Of a DNA stretch of 35,705 bases, positions 4,249 through 35,475 are shown in pieces. The stretch covers positions 1-35,705 of the forward strand of contig JAILCX010000070.1 in NCBI GenBank assembly GCA_024690205.1. Reading direction: 5' to 3'. This DNA is from Lachnospiraceae bacterium. GTDB lineage: Bacteria; Bacillota; Clostridia; Lachnospirales; Lachnospiraceae. A program made the translations under genes and the position numbers. The notes under the pieces are model-generated. The model saw only the letters and a list, made by a program, of their open reading frames with translations. It ran no database searches and was not told the origin of the DNA. The number at the start of each line of letters is the position of its first letter. Position 1 is the stretch's first letter.

Positions 4249-4259
4249 AATGCCTCCGT

Positions 4260-4705: not shown

Positions 4706-4818
4706 TCTTTTTAGTGGACTAATTCTGTAATACTCTTAATGCCCCATAATGCCATTTCATGCCTTTAACCCAAAGTGCCGAAACCCTTTGATTTCAAGCC
4801 TTTTCGAGCCACTTCGCC

Positions 4819-6192: not shown

Positions 6193-6213
6193 ATTTTTCC
6201 CTATAATCTAAAA

Positions 6214-6240
6214 GTACGCGTGCAAAAAATACACGCGTAC
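6214..6240 (-). terminator. Perfect 9-bp-stem palindrome between the acidic-membrane-protein gene and rlmD. Possible terminator or attenuator.
   Basis: GTACGCGTG-caaaaaata-CACGCGTAC. On the minus strand it is followed by a TTTTAG stretch. Confidence 0.35.
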
Positions 6241-6267
6241 CTGCTTTTATCATTTATATCCGATCAA

Positions 6268-6678
6268 TTAAGCTTCTTTGGGTTCATCTTCCTTTTTTGC
6301 TTCAGAATCGGTATCTATCTTATCAACATCTTCCCAGTTGGTAAGATCATCGTCATCTTCAAAGAAATCATCATCGAAATCCTCGAAATCATCAAACGAA
6401 TCTTCGATATATCCCGGAACAAGGAATCTGTAGATCGCATATCCGATACCTGCGCAAACAACGATGGTACCGATTATGGCAAGCACCCAAACCCATGTAT
6501 TGGTTTTCTTTTCTTCTTCAATTACCTCTTCTTTCTTAAGGAGATTCTTGATCTTTGCAAATTCCTTCAGCTCCTTAAGTTCCTTAAGATCGATATTCTT
6601 AAGATTATCCTTAAAATCATAATCTTTGACCATATCGACAAGATCACCGAGTTTTGATTTTGCATCCGTAAAAGTCAT
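6268..6678 (-). CDS. Hypothetical single-pass membrane protein with a highly acidic (D/E/F-rich) C-terminal tail.
   Basis: ATG 6676-6678 (MTFTDAKSKLGDLV...) has a GGAGGTG RBS 7 nt upstream. One TM helix (WVWVLAIIGTIVVCAGIGYAIY). Tail is DSFDDFEDFDDDFFEDDDDLTNWEDVD. Confidence 0.6.
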   Translation of the reverse strand: MTFTDAKSKLGDLVDMVKDYDFKDNLKNIDLKELKELKEFAKIKNLLKKEEVIEEEKKTNTWVWVLAIIGTIVVCAGIGYAIYRFLVPGYIEDSFDDFEDFDDDFFEDDDDLTNWEDVDKIDTDSEAKKEDEPKEA

Positions 6679-6760
6679 TCGAAGCACCTCCAATAACAGA
6701 TAATTACAGTCTGCTAACAAAGATTATAGCATACAACACCCAAAAAACAAATAAAAGCGG

Positions 6761-9031: not shown

Positions 9032-10156
9032 TCAGCCCATGAAGTAGTAGATAAGGGCAAACAGTGCTATCACGATTATGATCGTAAGTATTACCTTTAT
9101 TGCAGATATCGGAGTCTTTCCGTATACCTTACCGGTCTGTCCGTTAACAGCAAACTGGTATATCTTGTCCTTATACTTGTAGCTTGAGATCCATACCGGC
9201 AAAAGAAGATATTTAAACGTCACGGCTGAAAAAGAGCTGTTAACGTTTAAGCCCCTTACATGATCGGCATGATTTTCATTAAGTATCTTCGATGTTATGG
9301 AAGAATTGATCTTTCCCTTGATCGATGCCTTGGCTTTTTCCCAGGCATCCTTGACACCTACGGAATACTTCTCGGCACCGAAACCTGCTACGTATTCAGG
9401 CTTATATATCTTATTATCCGCAGTATCATAAGGTTCTATACCGCGAAGCAGATTTTTGTCATGCTGCTCGGTCCCGCATACAAGTTCATCGTCAAAGAAC
9501 TCGTCATAGTTTCCTCTTGTATTGTACCAATCGGTAACAGTGACCTCACTATCTCCCTTCTTGACCTTGCGGTCCTTACCGTACTGTGCGGTGTAGGAAG
9601 ATGCGGTTTGTGTATCGAATGTCCAATAGGGAAGATACATACCCTTGAAATTCTTGGGCTTAGCGCTTTCCTTGGCAGCCTTCGGGCAGTAGAATTTATG
9701 CTTTATCCAGTTAATGAATCTGTTTCCGGCTTCTTTCTGGTCTATTTTGAAAGGTATAACGCCTCCCGGAGCCATCGAGTCATTTCCACCGGCTTCGGTA
9801 ACCTGATTAGATCCGCAATAAGGGCAAACTGATGAGATAACCTGTGCATCATAGATGGATTCAGCTCCACAGCTTTTACAGATTATGGTCTTTGTTGCGG
9901 TTCCCCAATCATGATTGGCTGTTGATTCAGCATCTTCTAAAGTTATCTCGGCTGCAGATGTGCTTCCCCCGTTTTGGGAAGAAGGCTTATCTTCTTTATT
10001 GCTGACAGCATTTTTTATCTCTTCGGTATGTCCACAATAAGGACACTTTAGACCCCCGGTCACAGGATCAAAATCCATAGTTCCGTCACATGCGGGACAC
10101 TTTCTGTCAGTTTCTTTTAGCGTATTTACGATATTTGAATCGAATTCGTCGGGCAT
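9032..10156 (-). CDS. Membrane-anchored double zinc-ribbon protein (C-terminal TM helix). Partner of the upstream SPFH protein. Possibly YdjG-like.
   Basis: Start re-set to ATG 10154-10156 (MPDEFDSNIV), with an AAGGAG RBS 8 nt upstream. The ORF-track M is an alternative codon. Two CxxC...CxxC ribbons (CPACDG..CPYCGH and CKSCGA..CPYCGS). C-terminal TM is AIKVILTIIIVIALFALIYYF. Confidence 0.6.
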   Translation of the reverse strand: MPDEFDSNIVNTLKETDRKCPACDGTMDFDPVTGGLKCPYCGHTEEIKNAVSNKEDKPSSQNGGSTSAAEITLEDAESTANHDWGTATKTIICKSCGAESIYDAQVISSVCPYCGSNQVTEAGGNDSMAPGGVIPFKIDQKEAGNRFINWIKHKFYCPKAAKESAKPKNFKGMYLPYWTFDTQTASSYTAQYGKDRKVKKGDSEVTVTDWYNTRGNYDEFFDDELVCGTEQHDKNLLRGIEPYDTADNKIYKPEYVAGFGAEKYSVGVKDAWEKAKASIKGKINSSITSKILNENHADHVRGLNVNSSFSAVTFKYLLLPVWISSYKYKDKIYQFAVNGQTGKVYGKTPISAIKVILTIIIVIALFALIYYFMG

Positions 10157-10230
10157 ATCAAAACTCCTTTTAAAACCGCGAGAGGATGTCTCCACCCTCT
10201 CGCTTTGTTACCGTTATTCGGAATTATTTC

Positions 10231-11541
10231 TTATTGAGCATCAGAGTCGTCAAAAACATCTCCGCACTCAGGGCAGAACTTCGGAGGATGTGTAGGATCC
10301 TCGGGAGTCCATCCGCACTTGTCACACTTGTATAAAGGTGCACCGGCGGGTTTCTTTGCTCCGCACTCAGAGCAGAACTTGCCGAGATTTCCGGTCTTTC
10401 CGCATGAGCATGTCCATCCCTCCTCGGGTACCGGTTGAGGCTTTCCGCACTCGGCACAGAACTTACCGGTGTTTCCGGTCTTTCCGCACGAACATGTCCA
10501 TCCCTCTTCCTTGGGTGCTCCTACTACGGGAGCAGGAATAGGTGTTCCCTGCGCCTGCTGGTATACGGGTGCGTTTGCACCTGCCATGTTAGCCATGTTC
10601 ATTCCGGCAAAAGCCATAACAGGGCCGGCAGCGGTATTTGAAGCAGCTGCCTGCATAGCAGAAGCTGTAGCTCCGGTCATCATACCCTGTCCGAGAGTCG
10701 GATTTGAAAGGGCAGCTGCTCTCTGGAGCTCTTTTATCATGTTCTCGTCTTCTTCGGATGCCTTTAATGTGTTGACACCGAATGAAACGATCTCTATTCC
10801 TCTTAAGTCTCTCCACTGATCTGAGAGCTCTTCGTTAAGTGCGTTTGCAAGTTCCTTTGTATGTCCGGGAACGGCTGAATATCTGATACCCATCTCTGAA
10901 ATTCTTGCAAATGCAGGCTGAAGAGCTGTAAGAAGCTCTGTCTTTAACTGAGAATCGATCTTGTCTCTTGTATATTCATCAGTTACATTGGCACATACAT
11001 TTGTATAGAAAAGGATGGGATTGGTGATCCTGTATGAGTACTCACCGTTACATCTTATTGAAATGTCAACGTCAAGTCCTATACGGGCATCAACGACTCT
11101 GAAAGGAACGGGATTAGCCGTACCGTATTTGTTTCCGATGATCTCCTTGGTGTTGAAGAAATAGATCCTCTGATCCTTTCCCGTATCTCCGCCAAAGGTA
11201 ATCCTCTTACCCATTGTCTTGAATGACTCGAGGATGCTTGTTCCGAGATTTCCTGAAAAGATGGAAGGCTCGGTAGACGTATCATAAGTAAATTCACCGG
11301 GCTCAGCACAAAGCTCAACGACCTTACCCTGATCTACTATGATCATGCACTGTCCGTCGTTAACTGCGATCACCGAACCGTTAGTAATGATATTATCCTG
11401 TCCTTTGTTGTTCCCCTTTGTTCTCTTTTGGCCTTTGGTAACAAGAACGTTCGCATCCATTGAATCACAGTAGAAATACTCTTTCCACTGATCTGAAAGC
11501 TGCGAGCTGACTCCGCCAACCACTGCACTAATAAGTCCCAT
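10231..11541 (-). CDS. SPFH/band-7 (stomatin-prohibitin-flotillin) family protein with a C-terminal array of zinc ribbons (COG4260 / YdjI-like).
   Basis: 436 aa with a GGAGGTG RBS. The globular N-terminal 300 aa has the architecture typical of PF13421-type SPFH proteins. The C-terminus has three tandem GWTCSCGKTGNxGKFCxECG ribbons plus CDKCG..CPECG. Confidence 0.65.
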   Translation of the reverse strand: MGLISAVVGGVSSQLSDQWKEYFYCDSMDANVLVTKGQKRTKGNNKGQDNIITNGSVIAVNDGQCMIIVDQGKVVELCAEPGEFTYDTSTEPSIFSGNLGTSILESFKTMGKRITFGGDTGKDQRIYFFNTKEIIGNKYGTANPVPFRVVDARIGLDVDISIRCNGEYSYRITNPILFYTNVCANVTDEYTRDKIDSQLKTELLTALQPAFARISEMGIRYSAVPGHTKELANALNEELSDQWRDLRGIEIVSFGVNTLKASEEDENMIKELQRAAALSNPTLGQGMMTGATASAMQAAASNTAAGPVMAFAGMNMANMAGANAPVYQQAQGTPIPAPVVGAPKEEGWTCSCGKTGNTGKFCAECGKPQPVPEEGWTCSCGKTGNLGKFCSECGAKKPAGAPLYKCDKCGWTPEDPTHPPKFCPECGDVFDDSDAQ

Positions 11542-11731
11542 TTAACACCTCCATAGTGATTATTCGGCATTCCTAACATTCCGAAACACCGCGAATTATA
11601 TTATAACATATAAAAGGTTCAGATTACACATATCTTTTTTAATCGTTTTTGTCGCAAACGGAATGAATTTCTGATACAATAAAAGTGGTATGTGTTCTTT
11701 GACGCATGCCGCCTATATAGGGGGTAACTTT

Positions 11732-13375
11732 ATGGCTATATACGTAAATCAGCTCGGATATATCACCGATACCAAAAAGATCGCTGTGTCCACAAAACCC
11801 TGCAATTTCCAGGTTATACGTTTAAGTGACCAGCACAGCGTTTTAGATGGTACGACTGGTCCCAAGTTCAGGGATACGGCATCCGGCGATGATGTTTATG
11901 ATATAGATTTTTCTGATCTTACCGAAGAGGGTGAATACTATATTCTCGCAGGTAACAGCAGCAAATCTCATAACTTTAAGATTTCTAACGATGTATACAA
12001 AAACCTTATGGTCGATGTTTCAAGGTGCCTTTATTACCAAAGATGCGGTATAGCTCTTGACGAAGGCCATGCAGGTATTTACACGCACGAAGCATGTCAT
12101 ACCGAGCCCGCGATAATGCTCGATGATTTTGTAAAGAATAATCCCGAACCCAAATATTTTGACATGACAGGCGGATGGCATGATGCCGGGGATTTCGGCA
12201 GGTATTCTACCGCCGGTGCCGTTGCTTTGGGCCATATCCTTTATGCGTTCGATCTTTTCCCGGAAAGCTTCGGATATTCAATGAACATTCCCGAAAGCGG
12301 AAACGGCATACCCGATATCTTAAACGAGTGTGCTTATGAACTCCGTTGGCTTTTAAAGATGCAGTCAAAAGACGGCGGTGTCTACCACAAATTAACGGCC
12401 TGGCGCCATGCAGAGTTCGTTATGCCCGAAGATGACCATGACAGGTTCATCATCTATCCTGTTTCAAGCCTTGCAACAGCAGACTTTGTAGCGATCATGG
12501 CTCTGGCCTCAAGGGTATACCGTCCTTTCATGCCAGAGTTTGCCGATACGATGCTTAACGCTGCAATAAAGAGCAGCCTGTGGCTTGATACTCATTCATA
12601 TGTTGGATTTACCAACCCCGAGGGAAGCAATACCGGAGAATACGGAGACGAAGAAGACGTTGACGAAAGACTCTGGGCTGCTGCCGAAATGTTAAGAGCA
12701 GACAAAGCAAACAGCGCGAAATACTTAAAGATCCTGACAGCTTTATCGAAAGATGTTGTTTCAAAATCCGATTTCGGATGGATAGATGTTTCGGGATTTG
12801 CCACGATATCGATCCTTTCGGATCCCGATCATTCAAGCGGCATGCTTGAGTCAAGCTACAAAAACGAATTGCAAAAGAATGCTACCCGATTTGTGGAAAT
12901 GTCAAAGAATTCAGGTTATCACCTTGCAATGGAAAGCGAAGATTTTGTCTGGGGATCGAATATGGTCGTTGCGAACAGATCGATACTTTTTGCAATGGCT
13001 TACCTGCTTATCGAGGGGCCTTCCCAGGAGAAATTCAAAAACGCCGCCCTTTCGCAGCTTCACTACCTGCTCGGCCGTAATGCTCTTGATATTTCTTATA
13101 TTACAGGCGAAGGAGAAAATGCGTATTCACACCCTCATAACAGGGTAACCGCTTCAGACAATATAGAAAAGCCGATGCCCGGATGGGTTGCCGGAGGCCC
13201 CTTCAGGACTCCTTCGGATGCAGCAGCGATGTCTGCGATCCCCAAGGGAACACCTCCTATGAAATGCTATCTTGATGAGGTCGGAAGCTACTCAACAAAC
13301 GAGATCACGATCTACTGGAACTCGCCCGTTATCTTCCTTTTGGCATTCATCAATTCAAAGATAGCCAAAAACTGA
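11732..13375 (+). CDS. Glycoside hydrolase family 9 endoglucanase/cellodextrinase with an N-terminal Ig-like (CelD_N) domain. No signal peptide, so probably cytoplasmic.
   Basis: Start re-set to ATG 11732 (MAIYVNQLGY), with a GGGGGT RBS. GH9 signatures are GGWHDAGD, HPHNR, and the catalytic acid block STNEITIYWNSP near the C-terminus. No hydrophobic leader. Confidence 0.85.
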   Translation: MAIYVNQLGYITDTKKIAVSTKPCNFQVIRLSDQHSVLDGTTGPKFRDTASGDDVYDIDFSDLTEEGEYYILAGNSSKSHNFKISNDVYKNLMVDVSRCLYYQRCGIALDEGHAGIYTHEACHTEPAIMLDDFVKNNPEPKYFDMTGGWHDAGDFGRYSTAGAVALGHILYAFDLFPESFGYSMNIPESGNGIPDILNECAYELRWLLKMQSKDGGVYHKLTAWRHAEFVMPEDDHDRFIIYPVSSLATADFVAIMALASRVYRPFMPEFADTMLNAAIKSSLWLDTHSYVGFTNPEGSNTGEYGDEEDVDERLWAAAEMLRADKANSAKYLKILTALSKDVVSKSDFGWIDVSGFATISILSDPDHSSGMLESSYKNELQKNATRFVEMSKNSGYHLAMESEDFVWGSNMVVANRSILFAMAYLLIEGPSQEKFKNAALSQLHYLLGRNALDISYITGEGENAYSHPHNRVTASDNIEKPMPGWVAGGPFRTPSDAAAMSAIPKGTPPMKCYLDEVGSYSTNEITIYWNSPVIFLLAFINSKIAKN

Positions 13376-25388: not shown

Positions 25389-26354
25389 ATGATCGCGAAA
25401 ATCTGTAAAAGACGTGTAAAAGAACTCGCTACTCTTATAGCCGTTACGGTTTCGGTTACAGCTTTGAACATTACTTCTTTAGCTGCCCCTGTTGTTATGC
25501 CGGACGGCTCATTTTTTGATGCGGAATACTATGCAGCGAACAACCCTGACGTCGTTGCTGCTTATGGCAGTGATAATGCGGATTTCATGTATGAGCACTA
25601 TATAACATACGGTAAGAAAGAAGGCCGTCTTCCTTATGCCGGTGCGGATAAAACAGTTGCACCGGTTCAGCCTCCCCAATCTTCAACGGTTACCATCCCC
25701 GGGCTTGGCGTTCCCAAGATCCCCAACGGAAGCCGTACCACATCAACTGACGCTTCGGCATATTTTGCAAGAAGCGTGTTCGTAGGCGATTCGGTCCTTG
25801 CCGGATACAGAAACTATCTTGCCAAGCAGAAAAGTTCTCCCGTATCATCGGGAATTTTCCTTGCAGCTGCAAGTTACTCTGCTGCACATGCCCTTAACGA
25901 AAAAGATTCTCTTCACCCCATATACAAAGGAAAGAAACAGCCTGTCTGGACAGCTATATCACAGATGGATGTAGACCGCATATTTATCATGTTCGGAACA
26001 AATGATCTTGTTGTAAAGGATGCCGCCCCTGCTTCCGATGATGTTCTTGCTTTAGTCGACAAGATAAGGCAGTATAACCCCGGCAAGGAGATCCATATAA
26101 TCAGCATGTCACCGGTGTACGCAGGTACAAGCAAGGGGGCTATGAACAACCCGACGATAAAGATATATAATCAGCTCCTTTTGCAGGGTGCAATGGAAAG
26201 AGGTGTATATTACCTGGACCTTAACTCGCACCTTCTTAATTCAAACGGAGATCTGATCCCCAAATACTGTTCGGACCGCTATGTTCACCAGACATATGCT
26301 TCTTATTCGGAAGTCTGGGATCCTTTGTTTACTTCATACGCGTTAGGAGAATAA
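25389..26354 (+). CDS. Secreted SGNH/GDSL-family hydrolase (putative polysaccharide or teichoic-acid O-acetyl esterase/transferase partner).
   Basis: Signal peptide (LATLIAVTVSVTALNITSLAA). SGNH block I is FVGDSVLAG. Block III is MFGTNDL. DxxH candidate is DRYVHQ. Confidence 0.7.
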   Translation: MIAKICKRRVKELATLIAVTVSVTALNITSLAAPVVMPDGSFFDAEYYAANNPDVVAAYGSDNADFMYEHYITYGKKEGRLPYAGADKTVAPVQPPQSSTVTIPGLGVPKIPNGSRTTSTDASAYFARSVFVGDSVLAGYRNYLAKQKSSPVSSGIFLAAASYSAAHALNEKDSLHPIYKGKKQPVWTAISQMDVDRIFIMFGTNDLVVKDAAPASDDVLALVDKIRQYNPGKEIHIISMSPVYAGTSKGAMNNPTIKIYNQLLLQGAMERGVYYLDLNSHLLNSNGDLIPKYCSDRYVHQTYASYSEVWDPLFTSYALGE

Positions 26355-26357
26355 ATC

Positions 26358-27092
26358 ATGAAGAAGTCATTGAGAACCGTCCCCTTTGTCACGTTGGTTA
26401 TGTTGGTGTTGTTGTTAAGCGGATGCCGAAAGGCTGAGGCACCTGCTCAGGAGCCTGTGGCCGCAGTTGAAGAAAAAAAGGCTGATACAGCAGCTGAGAC
26501 ACCCGTACCGACTAAGGCTCCGGTTGTTGAAAAAGAAACCAAGGAAGAAACCGAGGTTAATAAATCCGAAGAAGAAAAAACCGACACTTCCGAACCCGCC
26601 AAAGAAGAGACCGCTGATCAGGCAGAAACAGATAAGGATTCCGCAAAAACAGGATCCGATGATGCAGCAAAGGCTGAAGAAAACAAAGCAGAAGAAAGCC
26701 AAACTAATGCGGTTGCTTTAAAAGATGTATACAACAAGATTGCAGGAAGCGTTGCTCTTCCCGAAATGTATTTTGCGGATGCAGGCTTTTTGATGAACTA
26801 TTACGGTATTGATGCTTCCAAACTTGAAGATTATGTTTTTGCTTCATGCCTTGATTCAACCTCAGCAGACTCCATCATCCTCATGAGATTAAAAGATGAA
26901 TCTTCTGCAGACGAAGTCATCGGTGGCCTTAACATGCTCCTTGAGCAGATGAGCATAGAGCTTGAAAGCTACAATCCCGAAGCCAATGAACTTGTAAAAG
27001 CCGCTAAGGTAAGACGTAACGGCAAAAACATTGACCTCATCATACATAAGGACAGAAACACAATATTGTCTGTCATAGACAGCTCATTATAG
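26358..27092 (+). CDS. Lipoprotein with a long E/K/T-rich low-complexity linker and a DUF4358-like C-terminal domain.
   Basis: Lipobox LLLSGC. The acidic linker spans ~26450-26700. The C-terminal domain (ALKDVYNKI...MYFADAGFLMNYYGID...SIILMRLKD) resembles DUF4358, which is commonly encoded beside MBOAT/DltD-like genes in Clostridia. Confidence 0.55.
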   Translation: MKKSLRTVPFVTLVMLVLLLSGCRKAEAPAQEPVAAVEEKKADTAAETPVPTKAPVVEKETKEETEVNKSEEEKTDTSEPAKEETADQAETDKDSAKTGSDDAAKAEENKAEESQTNAVALKDVYNKIAGSVALPEMYFADAGFLMNYYGIDASKLEDYVFASCLDSTSADSIILMRLKDESSADEVIGGLNMLLEQMSIELESYNPEANELVKAAKVRRNGKNIDLIIHKDRNTILSVIDSSL

Positions 27093-27104
27093 AAAGAAGA
27101 ACCC

Positions 27105-28547
27105 ATGGTTTTTTCAGGTCTTCCTTTTTTGATCTTTTTTCTGACAACTCTCATTCTTTGTTATTTTCCACTGGGAGCTGTCTTTAGGCGCATAAATATT
27201 CGATCCGGCATTGAAGTCAGAAACGGTATACTTCTGATTTTCAGCTTGTTTTTTTATGCATGGGGTGAGCCTAAGTGTATCTTTTTGCTCATCCTGTCTT
27301 CTTTTGTCGATTATATGGATGGTCTTCTTTTGGAAAGATTTGACGACCGTCCTGCACTGAGAAAACTTTTCCTCTCTGTTTCTTTGATCATCAATTTTTC
27401 GCTCCTTGGAGTAATGAAATACTCCGACTTTGTTGTAGGTACTTTAAATTCTCTTACCGGAGCGGGCCTTACTCTTCCCGGGATCGCCCTTCCCATCGGC
27501 ATAAGCTTTTATACATTCCAGACTACCAGCTATTCTATAGATGTATACAGACGCGAAGTAAAGGCAGAGCGGAATTTCTTCCGTTACCTTACATACATTT
27601 CGATGTTCCCCCAGCTTATCGCAGGTCCCATCGTACGTTACTCACTTATCAAAGAACAACTTGTATCAAGAAAGACAACTTTAGACAGTTTTTCCAGCGG
27701 TCTTCGCCGTTTTCTCATGGGACTTTTCAGAAAAGTCCTTATAGCCAACGAGCTTGGTGCGTTATGGGATCATCTAAGAGGTGTACAGAACCTTTCCGTT
27801 ACCGGAGCATGGCTTGGATTTCTGGTTTTCACCTTACAGCTTTATTATGATTTCAGCGCATATTCGGATATGGCCATCGGCCTAGGTCTTATGCTCGGCT
27901 TTCACTTTAACGAAAACTTCATCTATCCGCTTTCGGCTGTATCACTGACTGACTTTTGGAGACGCTGGCACATCTCTTTGTCTAGCTGGTTCCGTGACTA
28001 CGTTTATATCCCTCTTGGCGGAAACAAAAAAGGAAAGCTACGGCAGCTTCTTAATCTTGCGATAGTATGGTTCCTCACGGGACTTTGGCACGGCGCATTC
28101 TGGAATTATGTTCTTTGGGGAATCTATCACGGAACGATACTTGTCCTTGAAAAATTCATCTGGGGAAAGCATCTTGAAAAAGCGCCCCGGCTCGTAAGAC
28201 ACCTTTATACTTTGCTTATCGTGATCTTCGGATTTGGAATATTCTATTTTGAAGACATGAACGCATTAACACAGTATCTTACCTTTTCATTCGGAACAGC
28301 CGGCAATGCTCTTTTGGGAAATGAATTATTATGGGCGTTTGGCAATTACCTTCCGGTCCTTATATTTGCGATCCTTTTCATGTTCCCGGTCTTTCCGAAG
28401 ATCAGGGATTACATCCATACACTCGGAGAGAAAAAAGAAAGCATCGCACGTTTTGCGGCCGGATCACTCTCCGTTTTACTGCTGATACTTTGCATAGCAA
28501 ACCTTGTAAGAGATTCCTTTAACCCTTTTTTGTATTTCAGGTTTTGA
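27105..28547 (+). CDS. MBOAT-family membrane-bound O-acyltransferase (AlgI/DltB-like).
   Basis: Multi-TM protein. The invariant MBOAT His block is FWRRWHISLSSWFRDYVYIPLGGN. Confidence 0.85.
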   Translation: MVFSGLPFLIFFLTTLILCYFPLGAVFRRINIRSGIEVRNGILLIFSLFFYAWGEPKCIFLLILSSFVDYMDGLLLERFDDRPALRKLFLSVSLIINFSLLGVMKYSDFVVGTLNSLTGAGLTLPGIALPIGISFYTFQTTSYSIDVYRREVKAERNFFRYLTYISMFPQLIAGPIVRYSLIKEQLVSRKTTLDSFSSGLRRFLMGLFRKVLIANELGALWDHLRGVQNLSVTGAWLGFLVFTLQLYYDFSAYSDMAIGLGLMLGFHFNENFIYPLSAVSLTDFWRRWHISLSSWFRDYVYIPLGGNKKGKLRQLLNLAIVWFLTGLWHGAFWNYVLWGIYHGTILVLEKFIWGKHLEKAPRLVRHLYTLLIVIFGFGIFYFEDMNALTQYLTFSFGTAGNALLGNELLWAFGNYLPVLIFAILFMFPVFPKIRDYIHTLGEKKESIARFAAGSLSVLLLILCIANLVRDSFNPFLYFRF

Positions 28548-29764
28548 TGATAATGAAAAAACACTCTGTTAAAGATCTGATAAAATACATACCCGAATTT
28601 GCTGCGATCACGGTTTTGTTTGCGTTTGCAGTCATGTTCATGCTCTCATACCAAAAGGAGTTTTCCGAAAACGAAAACCGCGTCTTAGCCTCATGTCCCG
28701 CTCCTTCTTTGGATGGCATTTTCGATCACTCATTCATGGATTCCTTTGAGGATTATATATCGGATCAGTTTCCTTTAAGAGATGACCTTTTATCTTTTTC
28801 TGTCATCGCATCAAGAGCAGAAGGCAAAAAAGAAGTAAACGGAGTGATCTATGCCAAAGAAGGTCCTGATAACATCCGTCTCATCGACCGATACAACAAG
28901 CCTCAAAACGCTGACAAGTTCATAGATGCCGTAGCCAGATTAAAAGATGGAGTAACCTCAGCCGATATCACGGTAATGGTCGTTCCGACTTCATACTGGT
29001 TATATGAAGATGAAATGCCCAAAACGACCCTTAATACAGAACGTCCGCTTCAAAAGGACACTTTAAAATACATTAATGACGGGATAGACAACCTGGGCGC
29101 ATCAACTAAGGTTAATATGGTTGATAACATATTTGACCGCCTTACGGACGGCCGAAAGGCAGGTCTCAACATCTTTTACCGGACCGATCATCACTGGACA
29201 ACAAGCGGTGCCTATATGGGGTATCTTGCGCTTTCGCCATACCTTATGCTTCCCGAAAGAAAAGATCTCCTTTCAAATCTTACATGCATCAGCGATTCCT
29301 TTTACGGCACGACATGGTCAAAAGTCGTTGACCGCTCTGTTAAACCTGACACGATGGATATATATGATTCACCCGAATGGAAAGACCATCTTACGGTAAC
29401 ATATGAAAATACCGGCGAGTCTTTTAATTCTCCGTATAACCGCGATTATCTTAATGTCAAAGATAAGTATTCCGTTTTCCTTAATAACCAGCATTCCCTT
29501 ATTACCATAAAGAACGAAAATGCCGACCTTACAAGAACTGATGGGGAGGAGCATCGTGCGCTTGTTGTGATAAAGGACAGCTATGCTAACTCCCTTATCC
29601 CGTTCCTTATCGATCATTATGAGACCATATGGGTATTCGACCCAAGATATTACAGAGGCAGCATAACCGAATGGATAAATGATCATCCCGAAGTTAAAGA
29701 TGTCCTTGTGCTTTATAACCTTTCCACCATGGATAACGACAGAGGCCTTGGTGCGATATACTGA
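28547..29764 (+). CDS. DltD/AlgJ/AlgX-like O-acyltransferase accessory protein (DHHW family).
   Basis: ATG 28547 overlaps the MBOAT stop in a TGATGA arrangement. N-terminal TM anchor. Signature YRTDHHWTTSGAYMGY (the DHHW motif of the AlgJ/DltD family). Confidence 0.7.
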   Translation: MIMKKHSVKDLIKYIPEFAAITVLFAFAVMFMLSYQKEFSENENRVLASCPAPSLDGIFDHSFMDSFEDYISDQFPLRDDLLSFSVIASRAEGKKEVNGVIYAKEGPDNIRLIDRYNKPQNADKFIDAVARLKDGVTSADITVMVVPTSYWLYEDEMPKTTLNTERPLQKDTLKYINDGIDNLGASTKVNMVDNIFDRLTDGRKAGLNIFYRTDHHWTTSGAYMGYLALSPYLMLPERKDLLSNLTCISDSFYGTTWSKVVDRSVKPDTMDIYDSPEWKDHLTVTYENTGESFNSPYNRDYLNVKDKYSVFLNNQHSLITIKNENADLTRTDGEEHRALVVIKDSYANSLIPFLIDHYETIWVFDPRYYRGSITEWINDHPEVKDVLVLYNLSTMDNDRGLGAIY

Positions 29765-29768
29765 TAAC

Positions 29769-29850
29769 AAGTCAACGGGGACGGTTCTCTTTGAACCTGT
29801 TCTCATTGGGTTCAATGGGTAAGTCAAAGAGAACCGTTCCCGTTGAGCCT
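29769..29850 (+). repeat. GGGGACGGTTCTC-core repeat, locus 2. Convergent inverted pair able to form a ~23-bp-stem hairpin with a 29-nt loop.
   Basis: Arm 1 (29772-29794) is TCAACGGGGACGGTTCTCTTTGA. Arm 2 (29824-29846) is TCAAAGAGAACCGTTCCCGTTGA, which is the reverse complement with 1 mismatch. The loop contains a small nested hairpin GAACC-N11-GGTTC. Confidence 0.75.
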
Positions 29851-29887
29851 GAACCCACCATTGTGTTTTAGTAGAAAGAGGTGCCGA

Positions 29888-31534
29888 ATGACCAAAAGAC
29901 TCACAGCCGTTTTACTAACGATCAGCCTGGCATTTAGCAGCACGGCATGTTCTGCCGAAGAAGTTAAAGGCAAGGCGGACTCCGCTAAAAATTCCATAGA
30001 AAAAGCTGCCGACGAAGCGGCCGATACGATCGGAAAAACAGCATCTGACGTATCCGAGGTTGTTAGTTCCAAAGCAGCCGAGGCTGTCGGATATGCTTCG
30101 GAATGGTACTCAAATATCGATACGGCAAAGTTTAAGCAGGGCTGGAATTACTCGGTTGAGTTCCTGGGCGAAAAGTATTCGGAAGCGGTAGACAGTGAAT
30201 ATATCAGATCCGTTGCGGAAAATATGGCAAAGATACGCTCCAACATGGAAAGCGCATCTTCCGCTCTCATAGATTCTGCAATCGACAAAGAACAGCTTGC
30301 AATGAAGTGGGCAACGGAAACCTATTCCGACGTTAAAGATGCAAGCCTTGAGATGATCGAAGAGAACTCTTATCTTAAGTACTTTTCGTCTGCTGATAAG
30401 GAAGCATCAAAGGAGGCCATGAACCTTCTTGTATCCTATTATGATTACGCCCGGCAGATGTCATCGCCCGTTGAACTTAAGGATTATATTGATGATTTCT
30501 GTGCCAAAGAAAGCGCTGATCTTAATGCCTTATATAAATCAGTTCTTAATGATCAGGAGCTTATAATTCCTGATGAGCAAATGCCCGGCACCATCGCCTA
30601 TATCACCGGCATATCGGACAAAATGCCCGGGGAAACTCAATCAAAATTCCTTTCCAAGGATTCCCTTTACGAACGCACGGTAAAATCCCTTAAGAAAAGA
30701 TATGAAGATAACAGTTTAAGTGAAAGCAAGGCTCCCACAGCGGCAGAGATAATCGCACTTGCTCAGTTGGCCGAGGAAGGAACCTTACAGCCTTCTGATT
30801 TTAACGTATCGGTATCAACACTCCTTTGCCCCAAATACGTTCTTAAACAGGCCTGCTATTCCGTTTCCGGAATGTCAGATTTTGATGATGTTGTTAATAT
30901 AGGTTCAAGTGTCTATTCCATACTGAAGGAAGCGGCATCCGATGGGCATATAGATACCGACGCTCTCAAAAAGGGGGATATGAAAACTGTTCTGGCTTCA
31001 TCCGACGGTTTTGTTGAAGGTTCGGTAAGTCAGTTTGTTATATCGGGATGCAGAGAAGGAAACTGGGGAGAATATATAAAAGATGATCCTTCCCTTTGTG
31101 CCGTGATCTCGGTTCTCGTCATTGATGGAGCAGTAATTGGATATGATCTTTGCCGCGGCGATATCACACTTGACGAATACGGAAACATGATGGCGGACAT
31201 GCTCTTTACGTCACTGCTTTCCCTTCCTACAAACGCGGTCGTTATCGCGCTTTTACCTTCTTTGTATATGACGGCTCTTGCAGGCTCCATGGCCGGCGTG
31301 ACTATGGTTGCTCTCGGATATGAAGATTCGGAAGCTGCAAAGAGCGCGATGCTTGATGTTGTAAACGGCGGAGGATTTGAGGCATTTGTTCCCGCAGGAA
31401 CTACCGAAGCCATAAGCGTAGCCAAAAGCAAGATAGAATCTCTAAGCATGAAAAACAAGATCTCATCATTTAAAGATACGATGATATCAACCACCAAAGA
31501 GGGATACATCAACATAGAAACGATCCCCGATTAA
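29888..31534 (+). CDS. Hypothetical 548-aa lipoprotein of unknown function.
   Basis: Start re-set to ATG 29888 (MTKRLTAVLLTISLAFSSTAC lipobox), with an AGAGGTG RBS. The ORF-track start is upstream. The C-terminal third contains hydrophobic/Gly-rich segments. No family recognised. Confidence 0.6.
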   Translation: MTKRLTAVLLTISLAFSSTACSAEEVKGKADSAKNSIEKAADEAADTIGKTASDVSEVVSSKAAEAVGYASEWYSNIDTAKFKQGWNYSVEFLGEKYSEAVDSEYIRSVAENMAKIRSNMESASSALIDSAIDKEQLAMKWATETYSDVKDASLEMIEENSYLKYFSSADKEASKEAMNLLVSYYDYARQMSSPVELKDYIDDFCAKESADLNALYKSVLNDQELIIPDEQMPGTIAYITGISDKMPGETQSKFLSKDSLYERTVKSLKKRYEDNSLSESKAPTAAEIIALAQLAEEGTLQPSDFNVSVSTLLCPKYVLKQACYSVSGMSDFDDVVNIGSSVYSILKEAASDGHIDTDALKKGDMKTVLASSDGFVEGSVSQFVISGCREGNWGEYIKDDPSLCAVISVLVIDGAVIGYDLCRGDITLDEYGNMMADMLFTSLLSLPTNAVVIALLPSLYMTALAGSMAGVTMVALGYEDSEAAKSAMLDVVNGGGFEAFVPAGTTEAISVAKSKIESLSMKNKISSFKDTMISTTKEGYINIETIPD

Positions 31535-31554: not shown

Positions 31555-31591
31555 ATAAAAAAAGAGGTTGCCCAAAGGCACCCTCTTTTTT
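31555..31591. terminator. Bidirectional rho-independent terminator between convergent genes.
   Basis: A-run, then hairpin AAGAGG-TTGCC-CAAA-GGCAC-CCTCTT, then a TTTTTT run. Confidence 0.65.
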
Positions 31592-31609: not shown

Positions 31610-32251
31610 TTATACAGTTATAGGAGCATCACAATAATCACATGTGCAGGATGTTCCTCTTCTCATTGTCATCTTAGCTCCGCAACCGGGGCAGGCAACC
31701 GTAACAAGTTCTCCGCCGACGGGAGCTTCACCTGCAAAGGAACCTGTAGCCTGAGTCTGCTGTGAGATGGCAGGTCTTACGAATGTAACGATGTGTGAGT
31801 TGGTATCAAGTGTTGTATTCTTTAAAACGCCGATTGCAATAAGCTGAGATATCTCTTTTTCAGCAGTTGCTACGGTAACGCCGCACGCTGCAGCTATAGC
31901 GTTAACATCGTCTATATCCTGGTTGATGATCATGTCAATATAATCTCTGTTTCTTGCTGCGGTTTTTGCTATCTTCGTTGAATAGTAGATCAAAACACCG
32001 CCACCGATTATCATGAACAGTCCCCATATCCACTTGTTGTCTCCGCTAAACAGATTAGCGATACCAAGGATTATAAGGATAGCTCCTCCGAGAATATAAA
32101 TCTTCTGGTTTGATGCTCCCTTGAACACGGCCTGTTTGTCCATGCTGCTTCCCTTAGCTCTTAACAGGATAAGAACTATTCCTGCCGGCCAGAAAATAAG
32201 GAACGCCAAAATGATGACTATTGTTGATAAATACCAAGGACGCTGTTGCAT
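31610..32251 (-). CDS. Membrane protein with N-terminal TM helices and a C-terminal zinc ribbon. Third gene of SPFH cluster II.
   Basis: TM helices LSTIVIILAFLIFWPAGIVLILL, ILGGAILIILGIANLF and GLFMIIGGGVLIYY. C-terminal ribbon is CPGCGAKM...CTCDYC. Confidence 0.55.
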   Translation of the reverse strand: MQQRPWYLSTIVIILAFLIFWPAGIVLILLRAKGSSMDKQAVFKGASNQKIYILGGAILIILGIANLFSGDNKWIWGLFMIIGGGVLIYYSTKIAKTAARNRDYIDMIINQDIDDVNAIAAACGVTVATAEKEISQLIAIGVLKNTTLDTNSHIVTFVRPAISQQTQATGSFAGEAPVGGELVTVACPGCGAKMTMRRGTSCTCDYCDAPITV

Positions 32252-32270
32252 ATTAGTTTACCCCCGTTTC

Positions 32271-32972
32271 TTAAAACATAGCTCGTGATGAGCTTATAAG
32301 TCTGTTTCTTTCTTCAGCAAGTCTTTCTATTGCCTTGCTGGCTGATATTATGGATGCTTCATTGTTTTCATCCACTGCACGCGACAGATTTCCAACTTCT
32401 GTAAGCATCTTGCTTTCAATCTCGGCAACTACAGGTGTGCTCCTTACCTGGCCTGATGCAAGTGCATCAACTGCCTTTAGAACATCTTTTCTGTACGGAG
32501 CAGAATAATCGATCTTACCTGCTGCGAGTTTTGCATTTTCAAGTATTGATTTAAAGATCGCTATATCCTGGCCTCTTAATGCCTGCTGCTGTTTTACATC
32601 GGCATTTGCCTTTCTCATGCAAAGGTAAACAACAAGGAAAACAACAAGTATAACTATCTGCCAAAGGAACGAAAAGAAGACGGCATTCTTAAGCAGGAAA
32701 GAACATGTTGCGGCAACAACTATCTGCGCTATAAGATATAAAGTCACTACCGGATATAGAACATAAGCATAGATCTGCTTTTTCTCTCCAATACCGACAT
32801 CAAAGATCATAAAGATAAGAGCCAGTGCAAATGCGATAATTGAAAAAGCAAAACTAATCCAAAAAACGGTTGTATAGGTTTCAAGAACCGCAAAAAGAAC
32901 GATGTTGACCGCAATAAGTGCTGCAGCCATTATGAATGCAGTTGTAGCATTTAAAAACTTTATCGCCTTCAT
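32271..32972 (-). CDS. Polytopic membrane protein (about 4 TM) with a cytoplasmic alpha-helical C-terminal domain. Second gene of SPFH cluster II.
   Basis: GGAGGA RBS. Start lies 2 nt after the stop of the upstream SPFH gene. Confidence 0.55.
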   Translation of the reverse strand: MKAIKFLNATTAFIMAAALIAVNIVLFAVLETYTTVFWISFAFSIIAFALALIFMIFDVGIGEKKQIYAYVLYPVVTLYLIAQIVVAATCSFLLKNAVFFSFLWQIVILVVFLVVYLCMRKANADVKQQQALRGQDIAIFKSILENAKLAAGKIDYSAPYRKDVLKAVDALASGQVRSTPVVAEIESKMLTEVGNLSRAVDENNEASIISASKAIERLAEERNRLISSSRAMF

Positions 32973-32973
32973 A

Positions 32974-34326
32974 TTATTCCTCCTTGTTTCCGCAATTACC
33001 GCAGAACTTCATTCCTTCAGCAAGTTCTGCTCCGCACTTGGAACATACTCTCTTTGTCGGTCCCACCGGAGTTCCGCAATTACCGCAGAATTTCATTCCG
33101 GCAGGTACCTCTTGTCCGCAGTTTGCACAGATAACCTTGGGAGGTTCTACATTGGCTCCGCATGAACCGCAGAACTTCATTCCGGCAGGTACCGTAGCTC
33201 CGCATACGGGACATGCAATGTTTCCGCCTGCTGCTCCCTGGGTAAAGAGATTGTTCATCATTGCTCCGGCAGACTGGCCTACTGAATTACCCATACCGAG
33301 CCCCAATCCTGCCTGCATGAACATAGCTCCATCTCCTTCGTTGGAAACGGCAGCCTTCATGATCTCTGCAGCTTCCTGTCTCGCCCAGCCGTTGTTTCCG
33401 TCTTGATCCCTTATCTTCATACGTTCGTAGTCAGCGTAAGCGCCCTGACCTGAAACATAACGGTCCTTTTCTGCGCCTTCACGCTCAAGGCCGTACTGTA
33501 CTCTGGTATCGAGTATCTCCTGTTCACGGTCAAATTCTCTTTCCTGACGAGACATCTTCATTTCGAGCATACGCTTCATGTAAGGATCATTATCAGGAAT
33601 CTGAATATTCTCTATATAGAAATTGATAAGCTCAAGGCCATACTCTGCAAGAACTTCGTTAAGAGGCGCTTTCAAAGAATCGGCAAGCGCCTTCTTTCTG
33701 TTAATAACAACGATAACCTCTTCATCACCGCCTGCAAGATAAGCTGCAAGTTCATCCGTTATGTTTTGCTTGAAAGCAGTCTTAAAGCTGTTTTTAACAG
33801 ACTCTTCGGTGATGTTTTCGGCTCTTCCTGGAGCAGTCTGAAGCGAGCCGCCATGTCCTCCGACGAGTTTTAAGAAGAACTGCTTAGAGTTGCTGACAGC
33901 AACGGTATATGCACCTCTTGCAGAAACAGTAAGGACAATACCTGATCTGGGATCTACAACCTTGATGGGATCGCTGGTTCCCCACTTCATCTCAAGGTGA
34001 TGGCCCTTGTTGATAAAATATACTTTACAGTTAAACGGACTCTCGCCTCCTGAAAGCATCTTTGAAAGGAACTTTGTAAGGAAAGGATAGTTCTCCGTTG
34101 TAAGAGTATACTTTCCCGAAGTAAAGACTTCTTCAATGATACCGTCCTTCATGAAGAGCGCTTCTTCATACTCGGCAACTATAAGCTGAGCACCGTTATT
34201 AAAATCTTCATTCGGAACCTTGTAACAGATCTCGCCGTTACGGGCGTTGTTCTTAATGACGCTTAAGATAGGATTTGAGGGTTTTTCGGAAGAATCCCCC
34301 AGAATTTTGTCTAAGCCAAAAGCCAT
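32974..34326 (-). CDS. SPFH/band-7 family protein with C-terminal tandem zinc ribbons (COG4260 / YdjI-like). Paralog of the gene at 10231-11541.
   Basis: AAGGGG RBS. Four C-terminal repeats of the type CPVCGATVPAGMKFCGSCG. Same overall architecture as the 10231-11541 protein. Confidence 0.65.
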   Translation of the reverse strand: MAFGLDKILGDSSEKPSNPILSVIKNNARNGEICYKVPNEDFNNGAQLIVAEYEEALFMKDGIIEEVFTSGKYTLTTENYPFLTKFLSKMLSGGESPFNCKVYFINKGHHLEMKWGTSDPIKVVDPRSGIVLTVSARGAYTVAVSNSKQFFLKLVGGHGGSLQTAPGRAENITEESVKNSFKTAFKQNITDELAAYLAGGDEEVIVVINRKKALADSLKAPLNEVLAEYGLELINFYIENIQIPDNDPYMKRMLEMKMSRQEREFDREQEILDTRVQYGLEREGAEKDRYVSGQGAYADYERMKIRDQDGNNGWARQEAAEIMKAAVSNEGDGAMFMQAGLGLGMGNSVGQSAGAMMNNLFTQGAAGGNIACPVCGATVPAGMKFCGSCGANVEPPKVICANCGQEVPAGMKFCGNCGTPVGPTKRVCSKCGAELAEGMKFCGNCGNKEE

Positions 34327-34479
34327 AATATTACCCCTTCATAATCATAGTTTTGAAGTTTTTATTATTTAAACACCTCATATTAAATGATACCTTAATG
34401 AAGCTTTAAAAACAACAATTATTTATGCACTTGTCCGAGCCTGTTTCCTTTGATAAAATCAATGAACATGAAGTCTTTG

Positions 34480-34562
34480 AAGTCAATGGGGACGGTTCTC
34501 ATTGAACCCATTCTCATGAGAGGTCAAAGAGTAAGTCAAAGAGAGCCGTCCCCATTGAACCC
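34480..34562 (+). repeat. GGGGACGGTTCTC-core repeat, locus 3. Convergent inverted pair forming a hairpin.
   Basis: Arm 1 (34483-34505) is TCAATGGGGACGGTTCTCATTGA. Arm 2 (34536-34558) is TCAAAGAGAGCCGTCCCCATTGA, which matches the reverse complement at 21/23. A partial extra copy GAAGTCTTTGA immediately precedes it. The loop contains the palindrome TCTCATGAGA. Confidence 0.75.
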
Positions 34563-34593
34563 GCCATTATGTTTTAGGGGAAAGAGGTGACAA

Positions 34594-35475
34594 ATGATCA
34601 AACGACTCGCAACCGTTTTACTCACGATATGCCTGGCATTTAGCATCGTGGCATGTTCAGACGAGGAAGTTAAGGACATTTATGCTCCGCCAGTTAGGAT
34701 TGAAGAAATCGATTCCGTTTCGAAAGAATCCCCTTTGCCAAAACAAGCATCACAAGAAGAAGCCAAAAGCGAGCCCCTGATCTCCACCCCGGAAAAGCAA
34801 GGGGAACCGGTTGGACAAATAGCCGAAAACAATAAAGAGAAGCAACCCGGCGAAAAGGAAGACACCAAGGTCGAAGAAATATCCGACGACCGTTCTCAGG
34901 AAAAAGCAGAAAAGCAAACTGAAGCGACACCGACACCCGAAACAACACCTGAACGGTCGCCCGAAAAACAGCGAATCCTCTTTGTCGGGGATTCAAGGAC
35001 TATCGATATGTTTGCGGATTCAGACGAGACCTTATCAGGCGCCGTACATGACGGCATAACCGTCTATGCAAAGCATGGCTACGGCTTTGACTTTATGAAG
35101 GAGTCGGTAAACAGTTTCGGCACCGATAATTTTGACATCCTTATAAGCTGGATGGGAGCCAACGATCACGGAAACTTTGACTCCTACAGAAGCTACTATT
35201 CATCTTTGATAGAAAGCGGAAAGACCGTAATACTTTGCACGGTCGGACCGACCGATGATGAGCATCTTGTTTCATACGACCATCCGAACTATGAGAACGT
35301 GATGATGCTAAAATATAACGAATCTCTTCTTTCCTTTGCAAAAGAAAAAGGTATAAAAGTCATCGACCTTTATACCTATATTTCAAATAACATTTCTATC
35401 GATCCTGCCGACGGGATCCATTATACTCCCCGTCCGACAACTTCCATCTGGAACTATATCCGTTCCATGATCTGA
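34594..35475 (+). CDS. Lipoprotein with a C-terminal SGNH/GDSL hydrolase domain and a long acidic/proline-rich linker.
   Basis: Lipobox LAFSIVAC. SGNH block I is ILFVGDSRT. Block III is GANDH. Block V is DGIHYT. Confidence 0.75.
   Translation: MIKRLATVLLTICLAFSIVACSDEEVKDIYAPPVRIEEIDSVSKESPLPKQASQEEAKSEPLISTPEKQGEPVGQIAENNKEKQPGEKEDTKVEEISDDRSQEKAEKQTEATPTPETTPERSPEKQRILFVGDSRTIDMFADSDETLSGAVHDGITVYAKHGYGFDFMKESVNSFGTDNFDILISWMGANDHGNFDSYRSYYSSLIESGKTVILCTVGPTDDEHLVSYDHPNYENVMMLKYNESLLSFAKEKGIKVIDLYTYISNNISIDPADGIHYTPRPTTSIWNYIRSMI

Follow-up and report, generated by a model that had tools for sequence, protein, structure and literature searches.

A candidate operon of a soluble SPFH protein and two uncharacterised membrane protein families in a Lachnospiraceae genome

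We analysed a 35,705-nt stretch of DNA from a Lachnospiraceae bacterium (contig JAILCX010000070.1; the whole stretch is referred to here as the window), in which the gene for an SPFH protein lies next to genes for two integral membrane proteins. We refer to this triad of SPFH2, M233 and M213 as cluster II, and to the other SPFH module of the window as cluster I. Cluster II and its immediate surroundings contain the following features:

32974..34326, minus strand: SPFH2, a soluble SPFH protein of 450 aa
32271..32972, minus strand: M233, an integral membrane protein of 233 aa
31610..32251, minus strand: M213, an integral membrane protein of 213 aa
31555..31591, both strands: bidirectional intrinsic terminator, between the convergent M213 gene and a lipoprotein-like gene
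29843-31534, plus strand: the lipoprotein-like gene, 563 aa
34327..34593, minus strand: divergent intergenic region upstream of the operon, holding the Shine-Dalgarno sequence of SPFH2

An open reading frame check of the window returned exactly the coordinates at which an earlier, sequence-only reading of this DNA had placed three tightly coupled genes (31610-34326, minus strand). That reading gave the two spacings as 2 nt and 19 nt; the second is correct, but the first is 1 nt (TAA-T-ATG), with AAGGAGG located inside the upstream gene. The gap between M233 and M213 contains a GGGGG Shine-Dalgarno sequence, and SPFH2 has GAAGGGG 8 nt ahead of its ATG. Folding bore out the proposal of a clean bidirectional terminator downstream of M213, with free energies of -21.4 kcal/mol on the minus strand and -19.6 kcal/mol on the plus strand, and z-scores of -5.4 and -6.4, respectively; 0 of 200 shuffled sequences folded as well. 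The terminator stem is 14 bp long when the pairing A and T runs are included, and it has one internal mismatch, owing to which a pattern scan for terminators passes over this site. The short gaps, the presence of ribosome-binding sites and the single strong terminator suggest that SPFH2, M233 and M213 form one operon.

Upstream of the operon we found only weak candidates for sigma-70-like promoters, and no match to the sigmaW-type promoter TGAAAC-N16-CGTA. The divergent intergenic region contains an inverted repeat at 34483-34558, which had been described as a repeat hairpin in the promoter region of cluster II. The intergenic location is correct, but the tie to the operon is not: a block of ~190 nt, comprising the hairpin, a Shine-Dalgarno sequence and a lipoprotein signal peptide, occurs in two copies of 86% identity, each ahead of a plus-strand gene, with the palindrome recurring in the leader of another lipoprotein gene; this indicates that the hairpin belongs to the divergent lipoprotein gene. 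Neither the hairpin nor the intergenic regions matched any Rfam family.

SPFH2 matched the Pfam family PF13421 (Band_7_1) across residues 39-255, with a score of 128 bits against a cut-off of 24 (E 4.9e-37), and it also matched DZR (75 bits) and Zn_Ribbon_1. A regular-expression search located three C-terminal zinc ribbons of the form CxxC-x10-CxxC, at residues 372-389, 400-417 and 428-445, rather than the four counted previously. The region between the Band_7_1 domain and the ribbons is a coiled or low-complexity linker rich in Gly, Met and Ala. No transmembrane (TM) segment was predicted, the maximum 19-residue hydropathy being 1.09. SPFH2 therefore has both attributes of a PF13421/COG4260-type protein, namely an SPFH domain scoring above the gathering threshold and C-terminal ribbons without a TM segment, in agreement with its earlier description as a second YdjI-like SPFH protein. 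A single-sequence search of the PDB found no significant relative of SPFH2.

The middle gene had been described as encoding a 4-TM protein, and both hydropathy and a structure model place four hydrophobic helices in M233, at about residues 9-29, 35-58, 63-93 and 98-120. The model is alpha-helical throughout, with a helical bundle following TM4 to residue 232; this C-terminal tail is predicted to be cytoplasmic. The third gene likewise encodes a 3-TM protein with a terminal zinc ribbon, as had been proposed. M213 begins with a kinked TM helix bearing an invariant FWP motif, followed by two more TM helices; two of the three are strong, and one is weaker and Gly-rich. The remainder of M213 consists of a basic juxtamembrane helix, an acidic winged-helix (WH) domain (residues ~111-160), a disordered linker and a single C-terminal ribbon (CPGCGAK..CDYCD), in a structure prediction of modest confidence (pLDDT 67).

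M213 might be a membrane-tethered WH/zinc-ribbon transcription regulator that an SPFH ring holds inactive and that membrane perturbation releases, for example by proteolysis, to bind DNA. Several properties of the protein and the locus make this unlikely. Of 43 M213 family members, 30 have a net acidic WH domain, and 32 have a net negative charge in the equivalent of the recognition helix. The best structural matches of the modelled WH domain are protein-binding WH domains (DDRGK1, PCI and ScpB); the resemblance to membrane-anchored WH adaptors (eukaryotic DDRGK1, PCI-domain WH), at 9-17% identity, is at the level of the fold only, and implies neither homology nor a common pathway. Moreover, we identified no protease or cleavage motif, nor any conserved operator-like repeat associated with the operon, the sole upstream palindrome being part of the neighbouring gene's leader.

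Neither membrane protein belongs to a family in Pfam, for which we scanned family members as well. Specifically, a Pfam search at E<=0.1 gave no match to the TPM domain for M233, M213, or 19 and 24 family members, and there was no NfeD match for M233, M213 or members of their families. NCBIfam returned no meaningful match for either protein, and profile searches of the PDB with the partner alignments gave nothing significant, the best match being an Rpb12-type ribbon (E 0.007). Judged by these searches, M233 and M213 represent two new, uncharacterised protein families without a database model. The M213 family comprises 767 representative clusters at E<=1e-10. At present, annotation pipelines call both proteins "hypothetical", a gap that HMMs derived from our alignments would close.

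We next consider the linkage of the three genes in other genomes, using loci collected from the M213 side and, for metagenomes, an M213 scan made with a 15-sequence alignment. The order SPFH, 4-TM protein, 3-TM/WH/zinc-ribbon protein was found in 21 of 23 assessable genome loci, and the full triad in 44 of 53 assessable metagenome loci. Four more metagenome loci have SPFH and M213 genes, such that an SPFH gene lies upstream in 48 of the 53. The contig of one distant M213 representative, at 1.5 kb, was uninformative. Orthologues of SPFH2 that are 53-69% identical to it head the same triad in twenty loci (L001-L020), and the middle genes of distant loci are homologous to M233. The linkage spans Pseudobutyrivibrio, Butyrivibrio, Agathobacter, Ruminococcus, Clostridium, Tyzzerella and other Bacillota, and triad-bearing Clostridia come from the gut, the rumen, termites and bioreactors. 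One carrier of the triad is Pseudobutyrivibrio xylanivorans DSM 14809. The gene neighbourhoods of the triad loci are mutually unrelated. Because dozens of unrelated contigs share this gene order, the linkage is not due to chance, and the possibility that the partners are unrelated open reading frames without conserved linkage can be discarded.

The linkage is not absolute. M233 is missing at L033/L034, L044, L074, L075 and L105, and M213 stands alone at L024, L028, L095, L099 and L107, indicating that the complex is not obligatorily three-part. At L024, the solo M213 homologue lies directly behind an ECF sigma factor gene, which hints at a connection to envelope stress. In a neighbour-joining tree of SPFH proteins built without B. 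subtilis YdjI, the triad-linked proteins form one clade that is separate from the cluster I type, indicating that SPFH2, M233 and M213 diversified together.

The distribution of the triad also bears on whether it could be an accessory module for anti-phage defence, abortive infection or superinfection exclusion, with the TM proteins as membrane effectors under SPFH control. Consistent with such a role, the distribution is patchy and the neighbourhoods are variable; one triad (L026) is embedded in the tail module of a prophage, flanked by the genes for the tape-measure and distal-tail proteins, and another (L005) adjoins HEPN/nucleotidyltransferase and AAA_14 genes. A GmrSD-type restriction gene occurs in the same window as cluster II, though ~27 kb away. 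By contrast, most neighbourhoods are of a housekeeping nature (ribosomal proteins, Asp23/FakA, glycoside hydrolases, lgt), and the triad has no enzymatic effector domain. SPFH2 and M233 match no family in PADLOC-DB 2.0, in which M213 has only a non-significant 16-bit match to SoFic over its WH region, and the sole match in PHROGs is to a generic zinc ribbon. A scan of 2.9 million viral contigs yielded one partial match to M213, a result that led us to reject a mainly phage-borne origin for this family and that also argues against a role in conflict. Overall, we regard a defence or exclusion function as quite improbable.

The window contains a second SPFH gene, with a partner of its own:

10231-11541: SPFH1, the second Band_7_1 gene (cluster I), ~20 kb from cluster II
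9032-10195: SPFH1 partner, a zinc-ribbon protein of 387 aa with two ribbons and a C-terminal TM helix

The sequence-only reading had noted two divergent SPFH/zinc-ribbon modules within 25 kb and had taken them to be paralogous, suggesting either specialised membrane-stress functions or a duplicated accessory system. Both modules are present, and there is some basis for the view that cluster I is a ydjGHI-type module and that cluster II arose from it by duplication and then diverged in this genome: SPFH1 and SPFH2 are both PF13421 proteins with C-terminal zinc ribbons, their genes are close together, and their sequences align with an E-value of 1e-14. However, pairwise alignment shows just 22% identity between them, against 53-69% between SPFH2 and its orthologues from other genera and 70-92% between SPFH1 and the orthologues of SPFH1. 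Pairwise comparison of the partners of the two clusters, including M213 with the YdjG-like 387-aa protein, revealed no significant similarity. The SPFH1 and SPFH2 clades are deeply split in the neighbour-joining tree. Furthermore, the cluster I type is abundant and keeps its synteny with pcrA/DUF1836/M23 in other genomes, while cluster II occurs in variable contexts, and the 6-7 kb flanks of related cluster II loci contain no cluster I-type gene. A duplication within this genome is thus very hard to reconcile with the data. Given the lack of cluster I-type genes in these flanks, the proximity of SPFH1 and SPFH2 looks coincidental.

The claim that pspA is lacking was upheld, both in the window, where none of 29 open reading frames covering every candidate gene of at least 100 aa matched PF04012 (any other long frames overlap these 29, in another frame or on the opposite strand), and among the Pfam-annotated neighbours in about ten related loci (L001-L005, L031-L036). 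We favour the interpretation that cluster II is an operon for a PspA-independent SPFH membrane complex, to which we assign a probability of roughly 0.55, based on its domain content, operon structure, conserved linkage and co-diversification, together with the absence of a nearby pspA. SPFH2, having no anchor of its own, would probably rely on the co-translated M233 and M213 proteins for recruitment to the membrane, on its cytoplasmic side. There it may oligomerise, like SPFH proteins generally, and as a ring or scaffold surround both partners or hold them in check. M213, the most constant partner, could provide a docking surface through its basic juxtamembrane helix, its acidic WH domain of protein-binding type (PCI/DDRGK1/ScpB-like) and its ribbon, with M233 adding its four membrane-spanning helices and the helical bundle on the cytoplasmic side. 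By analogy with B. subtilis YdjG/YdjH/YdjI, cluster II may sense or organise the state of the membrane, possibly in connection with stress, but would do so with non-homologous membrane partners and without an ESCRT-III/PspA effector in the operon.

We also entertain a more far-reaching version of this interpretation, which as a whole we consider doubtful. Here, cluster II would be a PspA-independent membrane-surveillance device of Clostridia in which the SPFH ring gates M213, whose release or rearrangement would pass the state of the membrane to the cytoplasm, that is, to DNA/RNA or a protein target. In addition, the "CxxCGA...CxYCG[ST]" ribbon on M213, on the cluster I partners and possibly on YdjG would be a common docking element for all PF13421 SPFH proteins.

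SPFH proteins are universal membrane organisers, and to our knowledge clients have been identified for only a few of them: FtsH, NfeD proteins and YdjG/H-PspA. In the SPFH-NfeD operons, such as those for QmcA-YbbJ in E. coli, FloT/YuaG-YuaF in B. subtilis, and YqiK-YqiJ, an SPFH gene lies beside the gene for a small multi-TM partner, as in cluster II, and the pair is thought to form one membrane complex. However, the SPFH proteins of these operons are of the PF01145/flotillin types with their own membrane anchor, and the partner is of the NfeD or YqiJ/YuaF type, whereas SPFH2 is soluble. HflK/HflC-FtsH resembles the complex proposed for cluster II in that SPFH proteins assemble into a membrane-bound ring or cage around a client membrane protein, which they regulate. 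HflK/C differ in being TM-anchored and periplasmic-facing, with the FtsH protease as client; cluster II has no linked protease.

The closest parallel is YdjGHI/SamGHI of B. subtilis. [quoted passage not shown] YdjH is a membrane-associated TPM-domain protein, and YdjG combines two N-terminal zinc ribbons with an NTF2-like domain and a C-terminal TM helix (PMC11237479). Signalling by SamG/SamH is restrained by SamI (10.64898/2026.02.06.704340). [quoted passage not shown] In both systems the SPFH gene shares its operon with genes for two integral membrane proteins, each with a cytoplasmic part and one also bearing a zinc ribbon. The two systems are expected to follow a common logic, in which the partners either bring the SPFH scaffold to the membrane or are held in check by this scaffold (PMC8581546; 10.64898/2026.02.06.704340). 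The likeness of the partners to YdjG/YdjH, as far as it goes, is one of architecture and gene order. The SPFH gene comes first in cluster II, reversing the order of ydjGHI; M233, with four TM helices and a helical bundle, and M213 lack the TPM domain of YdjH; and M213, with three TM helices, a WH domain and one C-terminal ribbon, is unlike YdjG. Cluster II also lacks the sigmaW-type promoter and the pspA gene of pspA-ydjGHI. Hence, the earlier suggestion that the composition resembles ydjI-ydjH-ydjG is correct for the SPFH gene, which is of YdjI type, but does not extend to homology of the partners. Because the partners are distinct from YdjH/YdjG and the locus has no linked pspA, we view the resemblance as a functional analogy rather than membership; cluster I, with SPFH1 and the 387-aa protein, looks more YdjG/YdjI-like than cluster II does.

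We conclude that cluster II is a real, uncharacterised variant of the SPFH-plus-membrane-partner systems, and that it adds a third type of partner set to those of the soluble PF13421 subfamily. This set comprises two families for which databases have no model, one of which contains hundreds of clusters at 50% identity, and it is tightly linked to one SPFH clade. Compared with pspA-ydjGHI, cluster II suggests that a YdjI-type scaffold can operate without PspA in its operon. With its three genes, cluster II is also a compact system in which to study how a soluble SPFH protein reaches the membrane and what it controls there.

Cluster II comprises three minus-strand ORFs, followed by a hairpin that lies between convergent genes:

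32974-34326, minus strand, SPFH2 gene (450 aa)
32271-32972, minus strand, M233 gene (233 aa)
31610-32251, minus strand, M213 gene (213 aa)
31555-31591, bidirectional terminator

SPFH2 matched the Band_7_1 model PF13421 at 128 bits (cut-off 24) and a double zinc ribbon model at 75 bits, and we detected no hydrophobic segment in it. It ends in C-terminal Zn ribbons as the sequence-only reading had proposed, with exactly three CxxC-x10-CxxC motifs rather than four. A single nucleotide, not two, separates the SPFH stop codon from the ATG of M233, whose Shine-Dalgarno sequence (AAGGAGG) lies inside the SPFH gene; the 19-nt spacing between M233 and M213 was as described and carries a GGGGG Shine-Dalgarno sequence. 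The terminator is flanked by A/T runs and folds stably on either strand (-21.4 and -19.6 kcal/mol; z-scores of -5.4 and -6.4; 0 of 200 shuffles equally stable). Since the ORFs, domains, spacings and terminator all check out, the description of cluster II is confirmed with these small corrections. M233 is 100% identical to the NCBI entry "MAG: hypothetical protein K6A38_09330".

We next consider the two partners as protein families. Neither M213 nor M233 had an above-threshold match in Pfam, PADLOC, NCBIfam or PHROGs, and PDB sequence searches returned nothing significant. Marginal matches were PF10112 (16.6 bits, cut-off 29.8) and NF047874 (15 versus 560 bits) for M233, sub-threshold DUF2852 and PCI matches in 16 and 13, respectively, of 24 M213 family members, and a single 16-bit SoFic match from PADLOC over the M213 winged-helix region. 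When an M213 profile was run in full with HMMER against 1.84 billion representatives, it matched 767 clusters at E<=1e-10 (1738 at E<=1e-3), almost all of which are full-length proteins of 200-230 aa; M213 thus represents a sizeable, unnamed family. In its structure model (pLDDT 67), the N-terminal TM helix is kinked and carries an invariant FWP motif. Two further TM helices and a long juxtamembrane helix of basic character lead into a winged-helix domain, which a disordered linker joins to a small beta zinc ribbon. M213 could be imagined as a membrane-tethered transcription regulator gated by an SPFH ring; its winged-helix domain is acidic, however, and we consider this unlikely.

The three genes are linked well beyond the window. 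In Pfam-annotated contigs with close homologues, a Band_7_1/DZR gene was always followed by genes for proteins of ~225 aa and then ~212 aa, in surroundings that differed considerably:

Surroundings of the triad in related loci
L001: beside sortase and histidine kinase genes
L003: between rplA and rplJ
L005: near HEPN/nucleotidyltransferase genes
L031: with rpmB and Asp23/FakA around
L035: among glycoside hydrolases
L033: lgt and rhomboid around; dyad variant without M233

Searching one genome per GTDB species with an M213 alignment yielded 25 loci, and profile searches over the locus ORFs recovered the full triad, in order, at 21 of the 23 that were assessable. The middle genes of distant loci were missed by tblastn, and hhalign identified them as homologues of M233 (98.7% probability, E 1.6e-16). 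Starting from distant M213 relatives, a scan of metagenomes added 80 loci, 53 of them with enough upstream sequence: 44 had the full triad, another 4 SPFH and M213, 1 M233 and M213 without SPFH, and 4 M213 alone; in one of these last four (L064), the opposite strand carries a divergent SPFH gene. In a neighbour-joining tree of SPFH domains, all triad-linked proteins, close and distant, formed one clade, and the cluster I type fell in another. The three genes have thus moved and diversified as a group, and no stronger argument is available that they act together.

In variants of the triad, M213 is repeated in tandem, SPFH is preceded by an additional M233-like gene, or the locus also encodes a fourth small DZR protein or more small proteins with the same terminal ribbon. 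Six metagenome loci (L082, L087, L092-L094 and L108) share the expanded order M233-like, SPFH, M233 and two to three tandem M213 genes, then small soluble proteins ending in a CxxCGAxN...CEYCGSP ribbon; in L023, a SHOCT-domain Zn-ribbon protein lies between two M213 copies. The L003 triad (4648-7871; Lachnospiraceae MAG GCA_024698705.1), with a 158-aa double-zinc-ribbon gene, separates the L1 and L10 genes and so splits the rplKA-rplJL neighbourhood, which is usually contiguous in bacteria. In a Tyzzerella MAG (L026, 1825-8647), the triad occupies a moron-like position in a prophage tail module, between tape-measure and distal-tail/host-specificity genes identified by PHROG matches, and in L025 terminase and portal genes lie ~3 kb downstream of a solo M213 homologue. 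An anti-phage or exclusion function, to which one prophage-embedded and one TA-adjacent copy would point, is nonetheless quite improbable given that there was no significant defence-HMM match, that neighbours are mostly housekeeping genes and that the triad is nearly absent from viral contigs.

As one of two options, the sequence-only reading had suggested a duplicated system, with cluster II a paralogue of cluster I, which comprises SPFH1 (10231-11541) and a 387-aa partner (9032-10195) whose two Zn ribbons are combined with a C-terminal TM. Duplication has almost no chance of being right: SPFH1 and SPFH2 are only 22% identical and fall in separate clades, neither M233 nor M213 is related to the cluster I partner, and synteny differs. 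The SPFH1 type is very abundant (at least 8000 scored matches in a word-based search, all at E<=1e-5; 63-92% identity among the 120 matches listed) and keeps its synteny with pcrA, DUF1836 and M23 peptidase genes across Lachnospiraceae. Cluster II is the rarer type, with only 18 and 25 word-based matches for its partners and a variable context. Judging from these comparisons, the two clusters are not duplicates of one another, and their 20-kb proximity looks coincidental because the 6-7 kb flanks of related loci contained no gene of the cluster I type. In the related cluster I locus L038 (5001-7129), the partner differs (255 aa, N-terminal TM, one C-terminal ribbon).

A hairpin had been assigned to the cluster II promoter region. 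It does lie within the divergent intergenic region, but it is part of a duplicated block:

34483-34558, inverted repeat with 23-nt arms
29755-29960 and 34466-34680, duplicated block: palindrome, Shine-Dalgarno sequence and lipoprotein signal peptide

The ~190-nt block (86% identity) precedes plus-strand genes at 29843 and 34594, and comprises the palindrome AAGTCAAyGGGGACGGTTCTC ... GAGArCCGTyCCCrTTGA and the signal peptide M-x-KRL-x-x-VLLTI-x-LAFS-x-x-ACS. Because it is repeated before two lipoprotein genes, the hairpin belongs to those genes. Single arms at 25265, 26377 and 35528 flank other plus-strand genes. No Rfam family matched the element, a candidate REP-like element, operator or leader. 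Promoter scans for the SPFH operon itself gave weak sigma-70 candidates and no sigmaW-type match. The lipoprotein-like genes, one of 563 aa and one of 293 aa with a weak GDSL match, bracket the SPFH operon and follow a four-gene plus-strand cluster (25389-29764) of GDSL lipase-like, DUF4358, MBOAT and DHHW genes that resembles cell-surface polymer O-acylation systems. Elsewhere in the window, a 964-aa minus-strand protein (1411-4305; GmrSD_N, GmrSD_C and DUF4268), with a small overlapping 119-aa ORF upstream, resembles a type IV (modification-dependent) restriction enzyme. A plus-strand GH9 cellulase gene (11690-13375), whose product bears a CelD_N Ig-like domain, separates cluster I from an Exo_endo_phos gene and would fit a Lachnospiraceae member that degrades fibre in the rumen or gut.

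For cluster II, the analysis shows the domain content, the operon structure, the linkage and the co-diversification. The best-supported reading, with a probability of roughly 0.55, is that SPFH2, M213 and M233 form a complex that organises or monitors the membrane; we infer the interaction, the recruitment and a stress role. M213, and usually also M233, would tether the soluble SPFH2 to the membrane's inner face, where SPFH2 would oligomerise as SPFH proteins generally do, and the scaffold would restrain its partners on the pattern of B. subtilis, in which SamI restrains SamG/SamH (10.64898/2026.02.06.704340). Each PF13421 partner observed here bears a CxxCGA...CxYCG[ST]/D ribbon, namely M213, both cluster I partner versions and the extra small proteins of extended loci; it could be a common SPFH docking element, with motif similarity that alone is not statistically significant. 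An envelope-stress link is hinted at by the solo M213 homologue of L024 (4291-6621), directly 3' of a gene for an ECF-type sigma factor (Sigma70_r2 and r4_2) and of a 305-aa ORF that may encode its anti-sigma factor.

Full-text literature searches covering YdjI/YdjG/YdjH, PF13421/COG4260/Band_7_1, SPFH proteins that bear a zinc ribbon, and DUF2852 turned up no account of the triad or of either partner family. The triad is a real, conserved and uncharacterised module of an SPFH scaffold with dedicated membrane partners, unsurprising in principle to a specialist because SPFH proteins pair with diverse partners. In the B. subtilis ydjGHI operon, pspA is the first gene (PMC8581546, PMC11237479), YdjH is a TPM-domain protein, and YdjG combines two ZnR with an NTF2-like domain and a TM (PMC11237479); the cluster I partner in the window, with its two ribbons and C-terminal TM, has the YdjG layout. 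By contrast, cluster II has neither the TPM domain of YdjH nor the ZnR/NTF2-like/TM layout of YdjG, and it lacks a leading pspA, as the sequence-only reading had noted (no PF04012 match in 29 scanned window ORFs or ten annotated related loci). The proposed resemblance to ydjI-ydjH-ydjG therefore holds at the level of overall architecture only, and cluster II is ydjGHI-like without being a member: as in ydjGHI, a soluble YdjI-type SPFH protein is combined with two membrane proteins that have cytoplasmic domains.
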